A DNA stretch of 64,000 bases from Elusimicrobia bacterium GWF2_62_30 (GTDB lineage: Bacteria > Elusimicrobiota > Elusimicrobia > Elusimicrobiales > UBA9959). The notes beneath the pieces are model-generated. The model was not told the DNA's origin. It saw only the letters and a list, made by a program, of their open reading frames with translations, and did not search any database. The translations under genes and the position numbers were made by a program. Below, one piece after another: positions 7,909 to 57,219 of the stretch; positions within the stretch are counted from its first letter, which is position 1, and each line of letters begins with the position of its first letter. The stretch spans positions 21 to 64,020 of the forward strand of contig MGUK01000085.1 of NCBI GenBank assembly GCA_001799995.1. Reading direction: 5' to 3'.

Positions 7909-8049
7909 GCGTCATGGCGACGCGTGGACCGGGTTAGCAAAACCTTCCGACGACTGAGCCTTGCGTAAGCGGCGAAGGAGGAGGATGAGCGACGGCCACG
8001 GTGCTGGCCGAGCGCGTTTTGCGTTCCGGTCCACACGGCACCATGACGC
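7909..8049. repeat. Long imperfect inverted repeat (35/34-nt arms, 72-nt spacer), a candidate structured RNA or MITE-like element
   Basis: The arm gcgtcatggcgacgcgtggaccgggttagcaaaac (7909-7943) faces gttttgcgttccggtccacacggcaccatgacgc (8016-8049). About 28 positions pair. Two of the three point mismatches become G-U wobbles only in a minus-strand transcript. Confidence 0.6.
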
Positions 8050-37645: not shown

Positions 37646-37669
37646 AAAAGCCGGTCAGGGCTGGCTTTT
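37646..37669. terminator. Hairpin shared by convergent pepT and oleD ends (possible bidirectional terminator)
   Basis: aaaagccgg-tcaggg-ctggctttt forms a 9-bp stem including one G-T. A/T tracts form the stem ends. It overlaps the oleD stop codon. Confidence 0.35.
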
Positions 37670-38647
37670 AAACCACGCCGCCAGGCGTTCCATGCCTGTT
37701 TCTATGTTTACCAGGGGCGCGTAATCCAGGTCCCGCCGGGCGGCGGAGATGTTGAACCAGTGGGCGGTGGTCAGCTGCTGCACTACAAAGCGCGTAAGCG
37801 GGGGTTCGCTGCCGGTCCCGGCCAGCTTCCAGGCGGCTTCCAGCCCGGCCGCCGCGGCATAGGCCAGCGCGTACGGAATGGCCTTGGCGACGGGCGCGGC
37901 CCCGGCCGCATTCAATATCATGTTCACGATATCCCAGTTGGGGCGGGGGTCGCCCTGGGAAATGAAATACGCCCGGCCGGCGCAGGGCGCGCCGGGGGAA
38001 AGCCTTTCCGCGGCCAGCCAGTGGGCGTTAGCCGCGTCGTCTATATAGGTGGTATCGATCAGCTTGTTGAAGGCGCCGATGCGCCGCAGCCGGCCGGCTT
38101 TCCCGCGCGCCACGATAGTGGCTATCATGTGGTCGCGGCCCGGGCCCCAGATAAGGTGCGGCCTGAGCGCCGCCGTGGCCAGGGCCGGCGAATTGGCGGC
38201 GAGCACCAGCTTCTCCGCCTCGGCCTTGGTCTTGGCGTAATAAGAATCGAAGCTGGCGGGGTACGGCGCTCTTTCATCCCAGCCGTCCACGTCGCCGCCC
38301 GGGTAGATGACGCTGGGTGTGCTGGTGAAAACGAAACGGGCGACGCCGGCCGACTTCGCCGCCTCCAGCAGGTTTGCCGTGCCCAGGACGTTCGTCCTGT
38401 AAAAATCCCGGTAGCGGCCCCACATGCCGACCTTGGCCGCCGCGTGAAAAACGGTATCGCAGCCCCGGCAGGCTTCTACCGCCGAAGCCCGGTCGGCGAG
38501 GTCGCCGCGGACGCATTCCACGCCCAGCGCGGCCAGGCGGGGGTAGTCCCCGCGCGAGAAGCTGCGCACGGAAACGCCCTTCGACATGAGGAGCTGCGCG
38601 ATGGCGCCGCCGAGGAAGCCGCCGCCGCCCGTGACCAGGGCCTTCAT
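37655..38647 (-). CDS. oleD: OleD-type NAD(P)H-dependent 2-alkyl-3-ketoalkanoate reductase (3-beta-HSD/SDR family)
   Basis: MKALVTGGGGFLGGAI Rossmann start and the AAKVGMWG...NVLGT...FTSTPSV pattern. An ATGA overlap links it to oleC. It is the last gene of the oleABCD order. Confidence 0.8.
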   Translation of the reverse strand: MKALVTGGGGFLGGAIAQLLMSKGVSVRSFSRGDYPRLAALGVECVRGDLADRASAVEACRGCDTVFHAAAKVGMWGRYRDFYRTNVLGTANLLEAAKSAGVARFVFTSTPSVIYPGGDVDGWDERAPYPASFDSYYAKTKAEAEKLVLAANSPALATAALRPHLIWGPGRDHMIATIVARGKAGRLRRIGAFNKLIDTTYIDDAANAHWLAAERLSPGAPCAGRAYFISQGDPRPNWDIVNMILNAAGAAPVAKAIPYALAYAAAAGLEAAWKLAGTGSEPPLTRFVVQQLTTAHWFNISAARRDLDYAPLVNIETGMERLAAWFKSQP

Positions 38648-40266
38648 CGCCGCGCCCCTGCGGCTCCGATCTTTTCAGCGGCAAGGAGCGCGAGCTTTTC
38701 GCGCGAGATCTTGGCGTTGTGCCGTATGTCCACGGGGAACCCGGGATGGTACAGGATGGTGCGTATGCTCTTCGTGCGCTCGTCGGCGGCTCCAAGGGCC
38801 CTCAGTTCGGCGGTGAGGACTTCGTCCGGGGATACTCCCTTTTCCAGTTCCACGAACAGCACCGGGGTGAGGTTCCCCGCGGGCCCCGCGCCCGTCAGCG
38901 CGCTGCGGCGCACTTTAGGATGAGCGTTGAAAACGGCTTCGCAGGGGATGGTGAAAAGCGTCGCGTCCGCCGTAACTACCCGGTGGCTCTTGCGGCCGCA
39001 GAACCACAGCCGCCCGCCGGCGTCCCGCCAGCCGGTATCGCCCATGCGGTGATAGACTTCGCCCGCCGGGCCGTAGATCTTGGCCAGGGCCGTGCTTTCC
39101 GGCCTGCCGAAATATTCGCGCGAGACCACGGGGCCCTTTACGGTTATCTCCCCGATCTCGCCGTCCTTTACCAGCAGGTCGTCGGACCAGCGCTGCACCG
39201 GCTCGTCGGAGATCTTAATGATAAAGGTTTCCATTCCTTCCCAGGTGTGCCCGACGCAGATGCCCGGCTGCCCCGGGGTGAGCGCGGCCAGTTCGGCGCC
39301 GGAGATGCAGGAGACCGGCAGCGCCTCGGTGGCGCCGTAAGGGGTATAAACCTGGGTGTCAGGCGGCAGCATCGTCTTCATGCGCGCGATCACGGCGGGG
39401 GAGACCGGCGCGCCGCACGAAATGACGCGGCGCAGCGACGGCAGCTGCGTGCCTTTCTTTTCTCCGTAGCGGCTGAGGGTGTCCAGCAGGGCCGGGGAAC
39501 CGAACAACTGCACGGCGCCGTGTTCGTTGATCAGGCCTGAGAGCATGGCCGGGTCCACCGCCGCCGGCCTGGTAAAATCCATTTTGGGTATAACTATGGT
39601 AAGCCCCAGCGCTACGTCGAAAAGCGCGAAGAGGGGGAAAGTGGGCACTGAGTTAAAACCGGGCTCTATTTTAAAATGCTGCTTGAGCATCCCGGCTTGC
39701 GCGGCGAAGACGGAATGGGTGTACACCGCGCCCTTCGGGGAGCCGGTGCTGCCGGAAGTGAACAGTATCGCAGCCGTTTCGGGTGTGGTTTCCGCCGCCG
39801 GCACGGGGGTGCCTGCCCCCAGCCTGCGGATATCCTCCAGGGTGTACCCGCCCCAGAACCATCTTTTCCCTACGGTGACCAGGATCCGCAGCGATCCCCG
39901 GGCCCAGCGCAGGACCAGCCTGGCCGCGTGCGCCCTGGAGATACCGACAAAAGCTTCGGGGCGGGCTTCCTCGAGGCAGGCGCGCATGTTCCTGGCGCCT
40001 ATGCCCGGGTCGATGAGCACTATCACGGCGCCGGCGCGGAAAAGGGCGAAGGTAAGGGCCACGAACTCTATGGAAGGCGTCACCAGGAGGGCTACGCGCA
40101 TTCCCGGGGTTATGCCTGTTTTCGCGAGGCCGCCTGCCAGCAGGGAGATCTCCGCTTCCAGCCCTTCGAAGGAGATGGCGCGCGGGCCGTCTATTATGGC
40201 GGTGCGGCCGCCCAGGGCCGCCGCGCACAACGACATTAGCTCCGAGATATTGCGGATGTCCGGCAT
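38644..40266 (-). CDS. oleC: OleC-type olefin beta-lactone synthetase (AMP-dependent ligase superfamily)
   Basis: FTSGSTGSPKG AMP motif, plus the OleC-typical TFPLFALFDVALG and KMDFTRPAAVDP. Confidence 0.85.
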   Translation of the reverse strand: MPDIRNISELMSLCAAALGGRTAIIDGPRAISFEGLEAEISLLAGGLAKTGITPGMRVALLVTPSIEFVALTFALFRAGAVIVLIDPGIGARNMRACLEEARPEAFVGISRAHAARLVLRWARGSLRILVTVGKRWFWGGYTLEDIRRLGAGTPVPAAETTPETAAILFTSGSTGSPKGAVYTHSVFAAQAGMLKQHFKIEPGFNSVPTFPLFALFDVALGLTIVIPKMDFTRPAAVDPAMLSGLINEHGAVQLFGSPALLDTLSRYGEKKGTQLPSLRRVISCGAPVSPAVIARMKTMLPPDTQVYTPYGATEALPVSCISGAELAALTPGQPGICVGHTWEGMETFIIKISDEPVQRWSDDLLVKDGEIGEITVKGPVVSREYFGRPESTALAKIYGPAGEVYHRMGDTGWRDAGGRLWFCGRKSHRVVTADATLFTIPCEAVFNAHPKVRRSALTGAGPAGNLTPVLFVELEKGVSPDEVLTAELRALGAADERTKSIRTILYHPGFPVDIRHNAKISREKLALLAAEKIGAAGARR

Positions 40267-40273
40267 AGGAGGG

Positions 40274-41173
40274 TCAGGCCGCGCGCCCGATGAATTCCTT
40301 CACCAGCGGTATGACTTCGGCGGCGGCGTCCTCGAGGATATAATGGCCGCAGTCGGGGAAGACATGGGTTTCGGCCCGCGGGAACCTGCGCTTCCACTCC
40401 TCCAGGAAATGAACGTCGAAAACGAAATCCTTCAGGCCCCAGCAGATGAGCATGGGCAGCGTGGAAAGAGCGGAGAGCTTTTCCTGCGTTTCGAGCACCA
40501 GCGGATAGGCTTTGTCGCCGGGAGCCAGCGGGATATCCTCCACGAAACGCAGCGTAGCGATGCGGTTGCCCCAGCTGTTGTAGGGCGCGGTATAGGCGTC
40601 GCGCAGCCGTGGGCTCATGCGGGCGCGTTTGCAGCCTATCCAGGCCGCGCCGCGCGCGAAAGCGTTGAAGCCTCGGATCAGCCACGCGCCGAGCGGGGTG
40701 CGGCAGAGGCGCAGGGCGGGGGGGAAGGTTTTCCCGGACGGCAGGAAAAAGGCCCCGGTATTGAGAATAACCAGCTTTTCTATCCGTTCCGGGTGCCGCG
40801 CGGCGTAGGCGGTACCTATCATGCCGCCCCAGTCGTGCACCACCAGCGTGATCTTTTCTTTCAAGCCCAGGCCGTCCAGCAGGGCCTCGATATCCTCAAC
40901 CCGGCTTTCAAGTGTGTATTCGTAGCGGTCGTCGCCGGGCTTGTCGGAAAGGCCGCAGCCGATATGATCGGGGACAATGACGCGGCAGCCGCCCCTCAGC
41001 GCCAGGGCCAGGTCGCGGTAATAGAAGGACCAGGAAGGGTTGCCGTGCAGCATGACCACGGTCGGCCCCGAGCCTTCGTCGAGGTAATGCATTTTGAGCC
41101 CGCCCCTGAGGGTGGCGAACTTGCCGCTGAAGGGATAAAGTTCCGGAGTGACTCCGTCAGGAAGGTAGGTCAT
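40274..41173 (-). CDS. oleB: OleB-type beta-lactone decarboxylase (alpha/beta-hydrolase, haloalkane-dehalogenase-like)
   Basis: MHYLDEGSGPTVVMLHGNPSWSFYYRDL, PDHIGCGLSDKP and VVHDWGG. Confidence 0.85.
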   Translation of the reverse strand: MTYLPDGVTPELYPFSGKFATLRGGLKMHYLDEGSGPTVVMLHGNPSWSFYYRDLALALRGGCRVIVPDHIGCGLSDKPGDDRYEYTLESRVEDIEALLDGLGLKEKITLVVHDWGGMIGTAYAARHPERIEKLVILNTGAFFLPSGKTFPPALRLCRTPLGAWLIRGFNAFARGAAWIGCKRARMSPRLRDAYTAPYNSWGNRIATLRFVEDIPLAPGDKAYPLVLETQEKLSALSTLPMLICWGLKDFVFDVHFLEEWKRRFPRAETHVFPDCGHYILEDAAAEVIPLVKEFIGRAA

Positions 41174-41189: not shown

Positions 41190-42206
41190 TTACCATTTAA
41201 GGCCCAGCATTATCGTGTTCAGGCCGCTGCCGATGCCGAGGAAAGCCACGTTGTCGCCGGGGAGCAGGAATTCCCGCTCGTCGGCTATCGCGGCGGAGGA
41301 GGGCAGCGCCACGGTGCCCATGTTCCCCAGGTATTCATACGTGGAGAAATCCCGGCCTTCCGGGATCCCGAGGGCTTCCAGGATGTGCTTCTTGTGGGTT
41401 CCGCCGACCTGGTGACAGATGACCTTATTGAAATCTCCGGCCTTCATCTCCAGTTCCCCGAGCAGGTCCGCCCAGGTGCGCTGGCCCAGCGCCACGCCGT
41501 GCTTGAGCACGGCCGTCGCATCGGTGGACATATGGTCGCGGTGCCAGATGCAGAGCTTGTGATGTTCGCTGGCCGCGCGGTACGCCCCGCCCAGCAGCTT
41601 GTGTTTCTTATGCGTCCCGAAAGAACCGTCCGTCAGCAGTACGGCCACCGCCCCGGACCCGCCGGTAAGCGTGGCTATGGACAGGCGGAAGTTTTCGAAG
41701 CTTTTATCTTTCGTCATCTCCTCTATCATGCTGTCGTTGATCTCGCGGGCGGATTCGCAGGAGACCACCAGCCCGGCCTTTATCTGGCCCAGCTCTATGC
41801 GGTTGGCGACGTCTATCATGCCGTTGAGCACGCCCAGGCAGGCGTTGGAAACGTCGAACACGGCGGTCTCGGGCTTTACGCCCAGAGAGGCGGCTACCGC
41901 CGTGGCGGTCGCCGGCTCGCTGTGTTCGCGGCAGACCCCGGTGTAGAGCAGAGCCCCGAGATCGGCGGCGGAAAGGCCGGCCTGTTCCAGGGCCTTGCGC
42001 GCGGCTCGGGCGGCGCCTTCCGACAGGGCGAAACCGGGGTCCCACCAACGCCGCTCGCGGATGCCGGTCAAAGCCTCGAGCTGGCCGGGGGCTATATGCA
42101 GCCCCGCCATCATGGGGGCGATGCGTTTCTCAAGTTCCGAAGAGGTGACTACATTCGGTCCCAGTTCATAGCCTATCGCGTCCACGAAAACCTTGCTGTA
42201 TTTCAT
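41190..42206 (-). CDS. oleA: OleA-type thiolase (FabH-like head-to-head Claisen condensing enzyme)
   Basis: Homology starts at MKYSKVFVDAIGYELG, with the ATG at 42206-42204. Active-site Cys in DVSNACLG. The ATG overlaps the TGA of the upstream gene (ATGA). The longer track ORF to 42371 is an Arg-rich out-of-frame overlap. Confidence 0.85.
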   Translation of the reverse strand: MKYSKVFVDAIGYELGPNVVTSSELEKRIAPMMAGLHIAPGQLEALTGIRERRWWDPGFALSEGAARAARKALEQAGLSAADLGALLYTGVCREHSEPATATAVAASLGVKPETAVFDVSNACLGVLNGMIDVANRIELGQIKAGLVVSCESAREINDSMIEEMTKDKSFENFRLSIATLTGGSGAVAVLLTDGSFGTHKKHKLLGGAYRAASEHHKLCIWHRDHMSTDATAVLKHGVALGQRTWADLLGELEMKAGDFNKVICHQVGGTHKKHILEALGIPEGRDFSTYEYLGNMGTVALPSSAAIADEREFLLPGDNVAFLGIGSGLNTIMLGLKW

Positions 42207-45200
42207 GTTGTTATCCGTATGCTGAAATCTTTCATCTGGTAGATGACGAGCCCGTCCACGATCAGGAACCCGTCGGCGCGCAGCAGCTTCTTCTCGTCGT
42301 CGGCGCCGGTTAGGTACGCCTCCACGGTGACCAGCTTGTTCTTCGGCACCACCTGGCCGCGGTAGATCCACTGGTGTTTCTCGTTGAGGGCCATAGCTTC
42401 GAAGCGGGCGTTTTCAGGCAGGTCCTTCCACCTGAGCGCGGCGGCCGCTTTCATCAGGTTGATGAAGGATTCCAGCCCGAGCGAACCGGGGCAGACCGGG
42501 TCCTGGTAAAAATGCGCCTTGAAGAACCACTCCGCCGGGTCAACTTTCTTGAGGCCTCTAAGGAAGCCTGCCTTCTTAGGCCCGCCGCCGGGGATATAGG
42601 TTTCCACGGAGTCCAGCATGATCAGCTTTTCGTCGGGAAGGGGGGGCTGGGCCGAAAGAGCGGCCGCCGTCCCGCGGGCAGCTTCTTCGGGGCCGGGGGT
42701 ATAGCGCGCCGCGCCGCGCACGCCCAGCTGCTCCGAGAGCGACTTCTTGGAGAAGAAGCCGAACTGGGTCACGCCTTTATATACGGTGCGGCCTTTGCAA
42801 AGCACTTCCATGTCGTAATCCTGGATGATCATGCCGCCGGACTGGGACACCTTGGTGATCTTCACCTTTGTGGTCAGTATCCCGGAGTCTGGAAAAACTT
42901 CCAGGTACTGCGTGGCCGTACCACCGAGATTCCGGAAGGACAGGTCAGTGGGGCTGGTCAGGGCGCTGCCCAGGTACGCGGCCAGCCAGCCGCAGGGCTG
43001 CAGCGCCACTTCCAGCAGCACGGCGAAAGGCATGGACTTCTGCGCGCCGGACTTAAAATACCATTCTTCCGGAGGCACGTCGTATTCGGCCTCGATGACC
43101 CCGCCCGCGGCAAGTTCCCACTGGCGGCAGTTCTCTATCTTAACAATGCGGTCCAGGAATTTATACGGCGCGCCCGGCAGCCTGGCTATCACGCGTTCCG
43201 AATCGAAAACCTTGTATTTTTCGCCGAAGGCTTCGGACGGCCTGCCTATGGCGAAGGCGGTGATGCTGGCGTCGTCGAAAACAGCTTTCCGGGGGCCGGC
43301 CGGCGCGGGGCTGGAGGCGCCCGCCCACAGGGCTTCTATCTCCTGCTTCCTGGCGCCGCTCATGCGGATGGACATGTTGTGGATATGGATGATGCGCTTG
43401 CCGTCGGCGTACATGAAGGCGTCGGCTATGGCGTAGGGCGTGCCGTCGGCCTGGTAGCCTATTTCTTTGACGATGATCTCGTACATCGCCTTTTTAGTGG
43501 AGGGCAGCACCTGGCCGCGGCATTCGAGCCGGCTGGTCACGCCCGGTACCGGCTCGTACCAGCAGGAGCCTTCTTCCGCCGTCCAGCCAAGGCGCAGCAG
43601 CAGGACCCTGAAAGTGTGCAGGCAGCATTCATACATCAGCGTGCCGGGCATCACGTGGTCGTCGGAGAAATGACAGACCAGGTGCCAGTCGTCGGGGTGG
43701 ATGTCCATCTCGCCCTGCACCAGGCCCAGGCCGTAGCGGCCGCCGCGCGGGGAAAGTTCAAGTATCCGGTCCACCAGGCGCATCTTCCCGGAAGGCAGGC
43801 CGACCGGCTTGGCGAGAGGCAGGTCCGCGAAAGCGGGGCCGAAAGCTTCGGCGTAGCGCCCGGCGCGCAGCGCTTCCAGCTGCGCGTCCGAATAAATTTC
43901 TTTTTCCGCCGCGAAAGGAGCGGGAGGCTGCCAGCCTTCCGGGGCCTTGCCCGGGGCTGAAGCCTGCTCTTCGGCCGTGAGTACCACGCCTTTGCCTTTG
44001 GAGAGTTCCTCTTGCGTGAAGAAGCCGGCGCAGCCTTTCTTCATACTGAGCAGCGGTTGGCCGTCGACGGTGCTCTCGTAGTTGAAGAAGAAAAGCCAGA
44101 TGTCGCCGTTCTGCGCGAAGCGCTCGATATTGATGTCGTAATGGATGGTCTGGCCCGGTTGCGGCAGGCCGCGGTGGAAGGTGACTTCCGCGTCGAGCAG
44201 GCGGTACATCGCCTTGCCCTTGGTCCTGCTGTCGATGCCGAGGTAGCCGCACAGGAACAGGTCCGCCTGTCCCGCTTCTACGGCGATACAGGTGGGGATG
44301 CGGCCGCAGTCCAGATACCAGGCGTCCTGGTGTATATCGTGTTCCGTTACCACGTTCCCGGAGGTCATGGAGGCTGGCTCGCCGCGCACGGAGAGGATGC
44401 GGTCCACCAGCATCAGCGGCTCGTCGGGCAGGCGCACGCGGGTGGGGTAGGTGTCGGCGGAGGCGAACATGGGGCCCAGCACCCTGGCGATGGAGCCTAC
44501 GGCGAATTCCAGGCATTGCTCGCGCGTCATGAACACGGCTGCCTGCCGCTGCGCTTCGCTCCGGGCCGGCAGCGGCGGCGCGGCGGGCGGAGCGGGAACG
44601 GCCCGGGCGGCCGGCGCCGTCCCGCCGGCTTTCAGCAGGGTTTCCTGGAAAGCGATGTTCTTTGCCTGCAGCAGCGAAAAATTATTGGAAAGGCGGAGGA
44701 AAACCTCGTGCGCCTTGGCGCCGGCCGAAGAAGCCGCTGAAAAATTAAGCAGGTAGCCCGGGCCGGGCTGTGCCGCGGAGGGCACGGGCGCCGCCGGGGC
44801 CGGAAGCGCGGGCGCGGGAGCCAGGCGCGGCGGCAGGGACTGCGCAGCCGCGGCCGCGGGGACGGCGGAGCGGCTGACGGCGGGCACGGGGACGCTCTTT
44901 GCTGCCGCCGCCGGCTCCGCGGAAGGCTCCCAGTTGTTCTTCACCGGGGGCGGCACTGAAAGGGGCGCGCGCACGATGTTCTTGACCGGCCCGTGGTCCT
45001 GGTGGGCCGAGGCGAGGGAGCCCTGCCCGTAAAGCGCGGCAAGGTCCGCCGGCGCCCGTTCGGTTATAAGCCGCGCGAGCAGGCGCAGCACCGTTCCCAC
45101 GGCGTTCTGATTCTTTACGCAGGCGGACCGGGCCAGGTGGGGCTGTACACCCAGGATCTTGTCTATCATCCGGGTACAGGAAGCTTGCGGGCCGAGCTCG

Positions 45201-55644: not shown

Positions 55645-57219
55645 CTAGAATAACGGCGCTAACTGCTCCCTGGTCTGCGGCTCCTGCCGGGCGAGGGCGG
55701 CGTCTACCGCCACTCCCTGGCAGCGCAGCGCGTGCAGGCGGCTGAGCGCCGCCGCGCCGGCCAATAAATTGAAGGCGACCGTGACGGCGTCGCGGGACCG
55801 CGGGGCTTCCAGGAAGGTGCCCTTCGTCCACTCGTTGAAGGCGCCCATCGAGGGGCCGCACCACACCTGGTAATCCAGCTTGCGGGATTCGTCGCCGGCC
55901 AGCGGCCAGCGGGAGGACTGGCTGAGATACCAGCGGAAAACGAGGGCCATCTTGTGTTTCGGGTCGCGCTCGGCGCGCTCCGCCTGGGAAGGCTCCCTGC
56001 GCAGGAAGAATTCGCGCGTGCCGGCCCAGACCTCTTCGAAAGAGGACCTGAAGTAATCCTTCTCCAGGGACGCGCGCAGGTCGGCGGGCAGCTCGGCGAA
56101 GCTGCCGTGCGCGCGGTAGATCTCGAAAAGCTTGTTGGCGCGCATGGCGAACATCGTGCCGCGCTTGAGGACCTGCACCTTCACGCCCATCTCGAACATA
56201 TCGGCCGCGGCCGCCATCGCCACGTCGGACTGGCCGGCCCCCGCCAGCAGCGTCCGGACCAGGTCCGAAGTGCCGGACTCCACGCAGGCCTGGTTCACGG
56301 AACCGGTAACGATATAGGCCGCGCCCATCATGAAGGCCGCGGCCGCGGCTTCGGGCGTAGCTATGCCGCCGCCGGCGCCCACGCGCAGCCCGGAGGGATA
56401 GGCATACTTCTCCTGGGCCCTGTCCTTTACGGCTATGATGGTGGGCAGCAGGTTCACCAGGGGGCGGTTATCCGTGTGGCCGCCGGAATCGGCTTCGGCG
56501 GTGACGTCCTCCGCGACAGGTATCCGGGCCGCGAGTTCCGCCTGCTCCGGGGTCAGTTCGCCGCGCGAGACCAGCTCCCTGAGGAACTTGTCGGCGGGAG
56601 GGGAGAAGAAACGTTCGGCTACCTCGACGCGGGAAACCTTGCCGATAACGCGGTTCGGGGTTTCTATCTCCCCCGCGGAGTTCAGGCGTATGCCGTGGGT
56701 GCGGTAGCGTATCAGCGGCAGGCTCAGGTTTATATAGGCGGAGGCTTCTATCAGCCGGATGCCGCGGCGCAGGCAGAGGTCCACTACGGCGGCCTCCGGG
56801 GCCGGGTCAGAAGGAGTATGGATAAGGTTGATGCCGTAGTTGAACGCTTCGCCGGCCTGGAGGCGGTCTATGGCCTTCTCTATTTCTTCCACGGGCTGCC
56901 CGGCCGCCCCGTAGAAACCGAGCATGCCGGCGCGCCCCAGGGCTTCCGCCAGCTGGGTGGAACTTATCCCGTTGGCCATCGAGCCGCCGACATAGGCGTA
57001 CTTAAGGCCGTGGGCCCGGAGGAAAGCCGGGTCGCCCAGGCTGTAAGGGCGGCAGACCGGGACAAAGGCGTCGGCGGAGGCTATTCCGGGGGTGAAAACG
57101 GGGGCTCCGCCGCTGAACGACAGGGAATAGGGCCTGGAAATATCGCGCAGGCACGAGACCGTCTCAGGCGAATAAGGCAGAAAAAGGGGTAGTTCCGTTA
57201 ATTGAGCTTTAGAGGTCAA
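55645..57219 (-). CDS. pfaD: PfaD-like enoyl reductase (FMN-dependent, nitronate-monooxygenase fold)
   Basis: LKYAYVGGSMANGISSTQLAEALGRAGMLGFYGAAG and the remaining sequence are PfaD-family-like. TTG start at 57219, with GGAG 6 nt upstream. Confidence 0.85.
   Translation of the reverse strand: MTSKAQLTELPLFLPYSPETVSCLRDISRPYSLSFSGGAPVFTPGIASADAFVPVCRPYSLGDPAFLRAHGLKYAYVGGSMANGISSTQLAEALGRAGMLGFYGAAGQPVEEIEKAIDRLQAGEAFNYGINLIHTPSDPAPEAAVVDLCLRRGIRLIEASAYINLSLPLIRYRTHGIRLNSAGEIETPNRVIGKVSRVEVAERFFSPPADKFLRELVSRGELTPEQAELAARIPVAEDVTAEADSGGHTDNRPLVNLLPTIIAVKDRAQEKYAYPSGLRVGAGGGIATPEAAAAAFMMGAAYIVTGSVNQACVESGTSDLVRTLLAGAGQSDVAMAAAADMFEMGVKVQVLKRGTMFAMRANKLFEIYRAHGSFAELPADLRASLEKDYFRSSFEEVWAGTREFFLRREPSQAERAERDPKHKMALVFRWYLSQSSRWPLAGDESRKLDYQVWCGPSMGAFNEWTKGTFLEAPRSRDAVTVAFNLLAGAAALSRLHALRCQGVAVDAALARQEPQTREQLAPLF

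Follow-up and report, generated by a model that had tools for sequence, protein, structure and literature searches.

The window analysed here, a stretch of 64,000 nucleotides on contig MGUK01000085.1 (C85 below) of Elusimicrobia bacterium GWF2_62_30, carries seven co-directional genes, pfaD-pfaA-pfaBC-oleA-oleB-oleC-oleD (Pfam and NCBIfam assignments), in which a Pfa-like synthase, of the 'secondary lipid' class that resembles polyunsaturated fatty acid synthases, is followed by OleA, a head-to-head condensing thiolase, and by OleB, OleC and OleD. The locus is a new Elusimicrobiota member of the known pfa-like/ole cluster type. The stop codon of pfaBC and the start codon of oleA share the letters ATGA, and we think it very probable that this is an ordinary 4-nt overlap in a compact operon of a known class, with OleA likely fed from the acyl carrier proteins (ACPs) of the Pfa synthase and with the phosphopantetheinyl transferase (PPTase) supplied in trans. 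The assembly that holds C85 comprises 2.91 Mb in 99 contigs and is 84.5% complete. The DNA of the window is present in groundwater metagenomes, with no RNA data set listed for it, and the nearest homologues of its OleA belong to metagenome-assembled genomes (MAGs) annotated as Elusimicrobia or Elusimicrobiota.

The junction of pfaBC and oleA

Direct reading of the minus strand at the junction (...ACAACATGAAATAC...) places the ATG of oleA at 42206–42204 and the TGA of pfaBC at 42205–42203. A preliminary description, made from the sequence alone, had reported this overlap, and it is real. Two Logan contigs, X1 from the probable source sample (41700–42382) and X4 from another groundwater sample of that study (41780–42285), span the junction with 0 differences, which excludes an artefact of assembly. 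We take this ATG to be the real start of oleA, since NF006720 aligns with residues 1–338 of 338 and every close homologue starts MKY; the GTG at 42371 is merely the first in-frame start of the mechanically called oleA open reading frame (ORF).

The gaps between the operon genes are, in order, 61, 7, -4, 16, 7 and -4 nt, the last three placing oleB, oleC and oleD directly downstream of oleA. The second overlap is again an ATGA, formed by the oleC TGA and the oleD ATG at 38644–38647 on the minus strand. Strong Shine-Dalgarno motifs are missing at most internal junctions. A motif scan found only a weak Shine-Dalgarno-like GGA upstream of the oleA ATG; a Shine-Dalgarno-like AGAGGA lies in the 61-nt gap between pfaD and pfaA. 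Termination-reinitiation at the ATGA is plausible, and the overlap would probably permit it.

Within the genus, searches recovered oleA from 23 of 36 genomes and the PfaC tail from 26 of 40, and pfaBC stands directly before oleA in all 21 loci that have both genes on one contig. Four of these 21 junctions, the window's included, have the ATGA overlap; the others measure 7–16 nt (2 loci) or 150–224 nt (15 loci). In a tree of the PfaC tail plus OleA the compact junctions fall into at least three separate lineages of the genus, nested among sisters that bear a spacer.

These 150–224-nt spacers have in common a core of ~130 nt with a multi-stem fold (43 predicted pairs, of which 25 show compensatory changes) and a terminal hairpin followed by a T-run. 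No match to the core was obtained in an Rfam search. A covariance model, R1, has matches in 40 of the 41 genomes of the genus, from 9 to at least 82 in each, and 81 in the window's genome, where nhmmer gives ~104 matches, mainly outside long ORFs; one copy lies in the window itself at 7913–8045 (+). The repeat sits between pfaBC and oleA at L012:1337–1466 and in 12 other congener loci, and no copy is found at this junction in the window's genome. It was also found in three of the five other genera of the family that were sampled, and in none of the other families of the phylum sampled. A riboswitch or attenuator specific to pfa/ole was considered for the spacer and is ruled out by the genome-wide copies; R1 represents a structured, dispersed repeat specific to the lineage and comparable in type with repetitive extragenic palindromic (REP) elements or miniature inverted-repeat transposable elements (MITEs).

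Across phyla, 80 loci were collected from public genomes with an alignment of 11 OleA sequences, and in 65 of them a PfaC-like tail lies shortly before oleA. These 65 are spread over Elusimicrobia, Desulfuromonadales/Geobacteraceae, Planctomycetes (including Kuenenia), Verrucomicrobia, Acidobacteria, Beta- and Gammaproteobacteria and Riflebacteria. The gap is -4 nt in 12 of them, -1 or -11 nt in 5, 0–30 nt in 15, 31–300 nt in 28 and more than 300 nt in 5. In none of the 65 is a thioesterase, a ligase or a PPTase inserted at the junction; the rare inserted genes encode a PAP2 protein, a pyridine-nucleotide oxidoreductase and an IS200 transposase. Three anammox-related loci, those of Candidatus Kuenenia stuttgartiensis and related Planctomycetaceae MAGs (L107, L109 and L133), have the order pfaBC-then-oleABCD with a junction gap of 26 nt.

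The adjacency of pfaBC and oleA is thus deeply conserved and the overlap a recurrent, dispensable variant; tested among orthologous loci, the -4 nt overlap is not conserved (4 of 21 in the genus and 12 of 65 across phyla). OleA orthologues nearly all begin ATGA(A/G), so that a TGA in the +1 frame pre-exists there, and about one third of the deletions that remove the native pfaBC stop would therefore give the exact overlap without selection. The overlap probably results incidentally from compaction of the junction and is no conserved feature of the design. That it implies roughly stoichiometric coupling, as had been proposed in the preliminary description, is unsupported, for it is missing in 17 of the 21 genus loci and in 53 of the 65 cross-phylum loci.

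Natural PfaC-OleA fusions were sought among proteins of 593–2000 aa only, a range that leaves full-length fusions of ~2650 aa outside. Two singletons, P0122 and P0124, were rejected: in both the PfaC dehydratase (DH) region reads into a partial OleA between non-aligning stretches, and they look like frameshifted read-throughs. Two other metagenome proteins, P0121 (652 aa) and P0123 (671 aa), are apparent fusions of an OleA-like thiolase and an OleB-like alpha/beta hydrolase, which could be gene-calling artefacts. OleBC fusions are known; a fusion of OleA with OleB may not have been known before.

Gene products and the supply of acyl chains to OleA

The gene identities of the preliminary description are correct (Table 1). 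The PfaA-like subunit comprises a ketosynthase (KS), an acyltransferase (AT, motif GHSYG), three ACPs (LGIDS at residues 1092, 1184 and 1276), a ketoreductase (KR) and a PS-DH domain, as assigned by Pfam and a motif scan. PfaBC has a KS, a second KS-like domain of the chain length factor (CLF) type, an AT whose PfaB-type motif GYSLG lies at residue 1131, and a series of four FabA-like repeats; of its two KS-family stretches, only the first shows the DAAC(A) active-site motif. The architecture is thus of the Pfa type, with the PfaA layout, the PfaB and PfaC functions and a PfaD enoyl reductase, the last encoded by the first gene of the operon. No AGPAT-type acyltransferase domain was found in a Pfam domain search of the synthase. 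Downstream the operon is bounded by a convergent M20 peptidase gene; the ORFs upstream of pfaD (57.2–59.2 kb) gave no family matches and hide no PPTase or thioesterase.

OleA scores 470.8 bits against NF006720 (PRK09258; cut-off 285), over its full length, and aligns with Xanthomonas campestris OleA (3ROW) at E = 3e-53 with the catalytic cysteine at Cys123. Across 29 diverse homologues no change is seen at Glu97, Cys123 or His265, and Asn295 is nearly invariant. Its predicted function is the Claisen condensation of two long-chain acyl thioesters. OleC matches the olefin beta-lactone synthetase family NF045786 with 607.5 bits, under the 900-bit equivalog cut-off, and NF006754 with 645 bits, over its cut-off; OleD matches NF042422 with 415 bits, under the cut-off of 580. 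The beta-lactone synthetase and OleD families are the best specific matches despite these sub-cut-off scores.

Table 1. The pfa-ole operon of the window (positions of the 64,000-nucleotide stretch)
Feature	Position	Strand	Basis of assignment
pfaD-like enoyl reductase, first operon gene	55645..57219	-	Pfam NMO and FabD_helical_ins
pfaA-like subunit, 2135 aa	49176..55583	-	Pfam domains and motif scan
pfaBC-like fused subunit, 2321 aa	42203..49168	-	Pfam domains and motif scan
ATGA stop/start overlap of pfaBC and oleA	42203..42206	-	Direct sequence reading; contigs from two samples
oleA, 338 aa, head-to-head condensing thiolase	41190..42206	-	NF006720; alignment to 3ROW
oleB, alpha/beta hydrolase, haloalkane dehalogenase-related (beta-lactone decarboxylase class)	40274..41173	-	Pfam Abhydrolase_1; best NCBIfam matches are haloalkane dehalogenases
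oleC, AMP-binding, of the beta-lactone synthetase class rather than an acyl-CoA ligase	38644..40266	-	NF045786, NF006754
oleD, NAD(P)H-dependent 2-alkyl-3-oxoalkanoate reductase class	37655..38647	-	NF042422

From these assignments a working scheme can be proposed. The Pfa-like synthase would assemble a polyunsaturated acyl chain on PfaA's three tandem ACPs, and OleA would condense two such chains. The condensation product would then be reduced by OleD, closed to a beta-lactone by OleC and decarboxylated by OleB, giving a long-chain polyolefin. OleA most likely loads straight from the Pfa ACPs, possibly with the help of the PfaB-type AT; with such direct uptake no dedicated thioesterase or coenzyme A (CoA) ligase is needed. 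The PPTase would act in trans; AcpS falls into an assembly gap, and any Sfp-type enzyme would be unlinked or unrecovered.

That the operon and the window hold no PPTase, thioesterase or acyl-CoA ligase had been noted before and is borne out by profile searches. The thioesterase models PF03061, PF13279, PF00975 and PF01643 have no match on C85, and the sole PF00501 (AMP-binding) match there is OleC itself. The further statement that the operon has no release function is overstated in that PfaBC carries the PfaB-type AT. PfaB has been described as a terminal acyltransferase with reported hydrolase or off-loading activity (PMC12895367). A lack of thioesterase and ligase is typical of the whole pfa-ole cluster class, and a PPTase is likewise not conserved in or around the 65 junction loci described above. 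The conservation of the cluster without such genes fits direct use of acyl-ACP by OleA, and is circumstantial support, not proof.

Direct use of acyl-ACP by OleA is an existing hypothesis and not a new one. Allemann (2019, PMC6463001) obtained a 31:8 ketone from pfaA-E plus oleA in fadD-null E. coli, noted that a catalytically dead OleA still lowered eicosapentaenoic acid, and concluded that the in vivo substrate of OleA is acyl-ACP; the linked hotdog thioesterase PfaT is regarded there as an accessory type II thioesterase.

No match to the PPTase models PF01648 and TIGR00556 was obtained in the whole 84.5%-complete assembly. FabZ is present in this genome; therefore a fatty acid synthase of type II (FAS II), and hence some PPTase, must exist in the organism. 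The genes on either side of acpS in congener G024 align at the very ends of contigs C80 (65744 of 65745) and C66 (15900 of 15902), which puts AcpS in an assembly gap. The genome-wide absence is thus uninformative, and the missing PPTase is mostly a matter of assembly incompleteness together with trans-encoding.

PF01648 matches occur in 38 of 40 genomes of the genus, usually as two genes, one AcpS-like and one Sfp-like (~220 aa). The Sfp-like gene (35 of 40 congeners) is unlinked to pfa-ole and is present with or without it; among the 80 public loci an Sfp PPTase lies within the locus once, after oleD. In the four genomes examined, the Sfp-like gene directly follows a second PfaA-like synthase of ~2800 aa (KS-AT-KS/CLF-ACP-KR-DH) and stands beside a carboxyltransferase (L051:3207–9172 and L053:3270–10300 with L056:1–3719, in congeners G024 and G035). 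This cluster resembles the 'Type R' that Shulse & Allen described for Elusimicrobium (PMC3098273).

The preliminary description had left room for trans-acting genes elsewhere and had proposed a genome-wide check for PPTases, hotdog thioesterases and fadD. For the PPTase the first idea stands, given the AcpS gap and the unlinked Sfp-type genes of the congeners. The check gave no PPTase match, and did reveal a fadD-like gene and YbgC-class thioesterases; these do not track pfa-ole.

Alternative explanations

Several points weigh against the reading preferred here. We infer the product of the operon, and the form in which OleA receives its substrate, from gene content, and purified OleA enzymes have been characterised with acyl-CoA. 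The fadD-like gene lies on C68, where it is cut by the contig end, YbgC/PfaT-class hotdog thioesterases lie on C26 and C50, and a hydrolyse-and-reactivate route may operate. Overlaps of -4, -1 or -11 nt occur in 17 of the 65 cross-phylum loci, and coupling may bring some selective benefit. Lastly, the cluster of second synthase and Sfp-type gene is absent from the contiguous syntenic site on C86 (~27.3 kb) and from the rest of the assembly. Three other explanations were considered. In one, the PfaB-type AT or a hotdog thioesterase acting in trans frees the chain and a FadD-type ligase turns it into acyl-CoA for OleA. The GYSLG motif of PfaBC, the hydrolysis of long-chain acyl substrates by PfaB homologues (cited in PMC12895367) and the C68 gene would suit such a route, as would the C26 thioesterase, a YbgC/FadM-class protein with an E = 1e-14 match to the Orf6/PfaT structure 3R87/4I45, although its match to YbgC is better. 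We nevertheless find it unlikely. Neither a thioesterase nor a ligase is conserved within or next to the 65 pfaBC-oleA loci; the C26 gene is a core gene of the genus (36 of 41 genomes) whose distribution does not follow pfa-ole, for it occurs in genomes from which neither oleA nor the PfaC tail was recovered, and was itself not recovered from G007 and G008, which are pfa-ole-positive; the thioesterase and ligase on C50 belong to another cluster; and the OleA ketone was still made from Pfa products in the fadD-null host (PMC6463001).

The other two explanations concern the overlap and the PPTase. If the ATGA were a selected device that couples translation and fixes the PfaBC:OleA stoichiometry, as for an obligate complex, one could point to the reality of the overlap, to the recurrence of the 17 overlaps in several phyla and their at least three origins in the genus, and to the weak GGA before oleA. 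Such a device is highly improbable, however: the junctions of 15 of 21 congeners are filled by the dispersed hairpin-plus-T-run repeat, 48 of the 65 cross-phylum loci have no overlap, the ATGA start yields the same TGA after about one third of stop-removing deletions, unselected, and reinitiation coupling alone gives no 1:1 output. It is also improbable, if somewhat less so, that the organism truly is without an Sfp/PfaE-type PPTase and that AcpS alone modifies the tandem ACPs of PfaA. The assembly has no Sfp-type match, the Sfp gene of the congeners adjoins the very synthase that is absent at the C86 site, and the pfa-ole-positive G033 and G064 each have one AcpS-type ACPS match only, G027 having none. 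Against this stand an assembly only 84% complete, in which even the essential AcpS is missing, a completeness of at most 90% in all four genomes without an Sfp-type match, and the need of the Pfa synthases characterised so far for an Sfp/EntD-type PPTase (PMC3098273, PMC5029812). An ordinary overlap, direct feeding of OleA and a PPTase in trans remains our preferred account.

A broader proposal, which falls just short of being probable, is that throughout the Pfa-linked OleA clade (at least eight phyla, with oleA right after pfaBC) OleA would be the trans-acting release enzyme of the synthase, taking both substrates from the tandem ACPs with no need of a thioesterase, a CoA ligase or a terminal acyltransferase; priming by AcpS only would be possible in the present organism. 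If OleA does unload the Pfa synthase directly, the seven genes and a PPTase would make up a self-contained module from malonyl-CoA to long-chain polyolefin, of use in hydrocarbon engineering and as a clean system for the docking of a thiolase on tandem ACPs.

Two candidate partners were rejected. The C26 thioesterase stands among UPF0047 and DUF533 genes and does not co-occur with pfa-ole across the genus. The thioesterase and ligase pair of C50 is part of a separate pathway, in a cluster of the tyrosine-ammonia-lyase/4-coumarate-CoA-ligase-like type. This cluster (G000:C50:39747–44379; loci L001 and L007) encodes an enzyme of the histidine/tyrosine ammonia-lyase family, a 4-coumarate-CoA-ligase-like enzyme, a YbgC-class thioesterase and a GT2 glycosyltransferase, and may serve the synthesis of an aryl-derived secondary metabolite or chromophore.

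Comparison with known pfa and ole systems

The contribution of the locus is modest: it puts a pfa-ole operon in groundwater Elusimicrobiota, and the comparison adds that the genes keep their adjacency across phyla, whereas neither the overlap nor any accessory gene is conserved. Shulse & Allen (2011, PMC3098273) describe pfa-like clusters with a fused pfaBC that occur together with, and often linked to, ole genes, and note that Geobacter bemidjiensis makes a C31:9 polyolefin. The window has in common with those clusters the fused pfaBC, the three-ACP pfaA and the linkage to oleABCD. It differs in its host, an Elusimicrobiota member, and pfaD stands first in its operon; for Elusimicrobium the paper lists only Type R (PMC3098273). 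The OleA of the window is ~60% identical to OleAs of Desulfuromonadales and Planctomycetes, the loci of which share the order pfaBC-then-oleA.

With the pfaABCDE and oleABCD genes of Shewanella and Photobacterium, which lead to the C31:9 polyolefin (PMC6463001), the window shares a Pfa synthase that feeds OleA, with uptake of acyl-ACP proposed. The catalytic cysteine of their OleA bears the same number, C123. In contrast to the window, these bacteria have a separate PfaB, a PfaE in the pfa cluster and often a linked pfaT hotdog thioesterase. In Shewanella, moreover, the operons for pfa and ole are not joined into one, whereas the window has a single operon with no linked PPTase or thioesterase. 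The joint presence of pfa and ole in Shewanella and Photobacterium, and their C31:9 polyolefin, were reportedly described by Sukovich in 2010.

The OleABCD proteins of Xanthomonas campestris (3ROW, 3S21, 4KTI and further structures) agree with those of the window in the OleA fold family, the catalytic residues and the set of OleB, OleC and OleD. Unlike in the window, the acyl chains of Xanthomonas OleA derive from FAS II and no Pfa synthase is adjacent; it is also a distant relative (E = 3e-53), compared with the ~60% identity among the Pfa-linked OleAs.

The polyunsaturated fatty acid (PUFA) synthases of myxobacteria (pfa1, an enoyl reductase, followed by pfa2 and pfa3) resemble the window operon in the enoyl-reductase-first order and in the large fused third subunit. 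Their Pfa3 ends in an AGPAT-type off-loading acyltransferase. In the operon of the window it is oleA that follows the synthase, in the place of the AGPAT-type domain.

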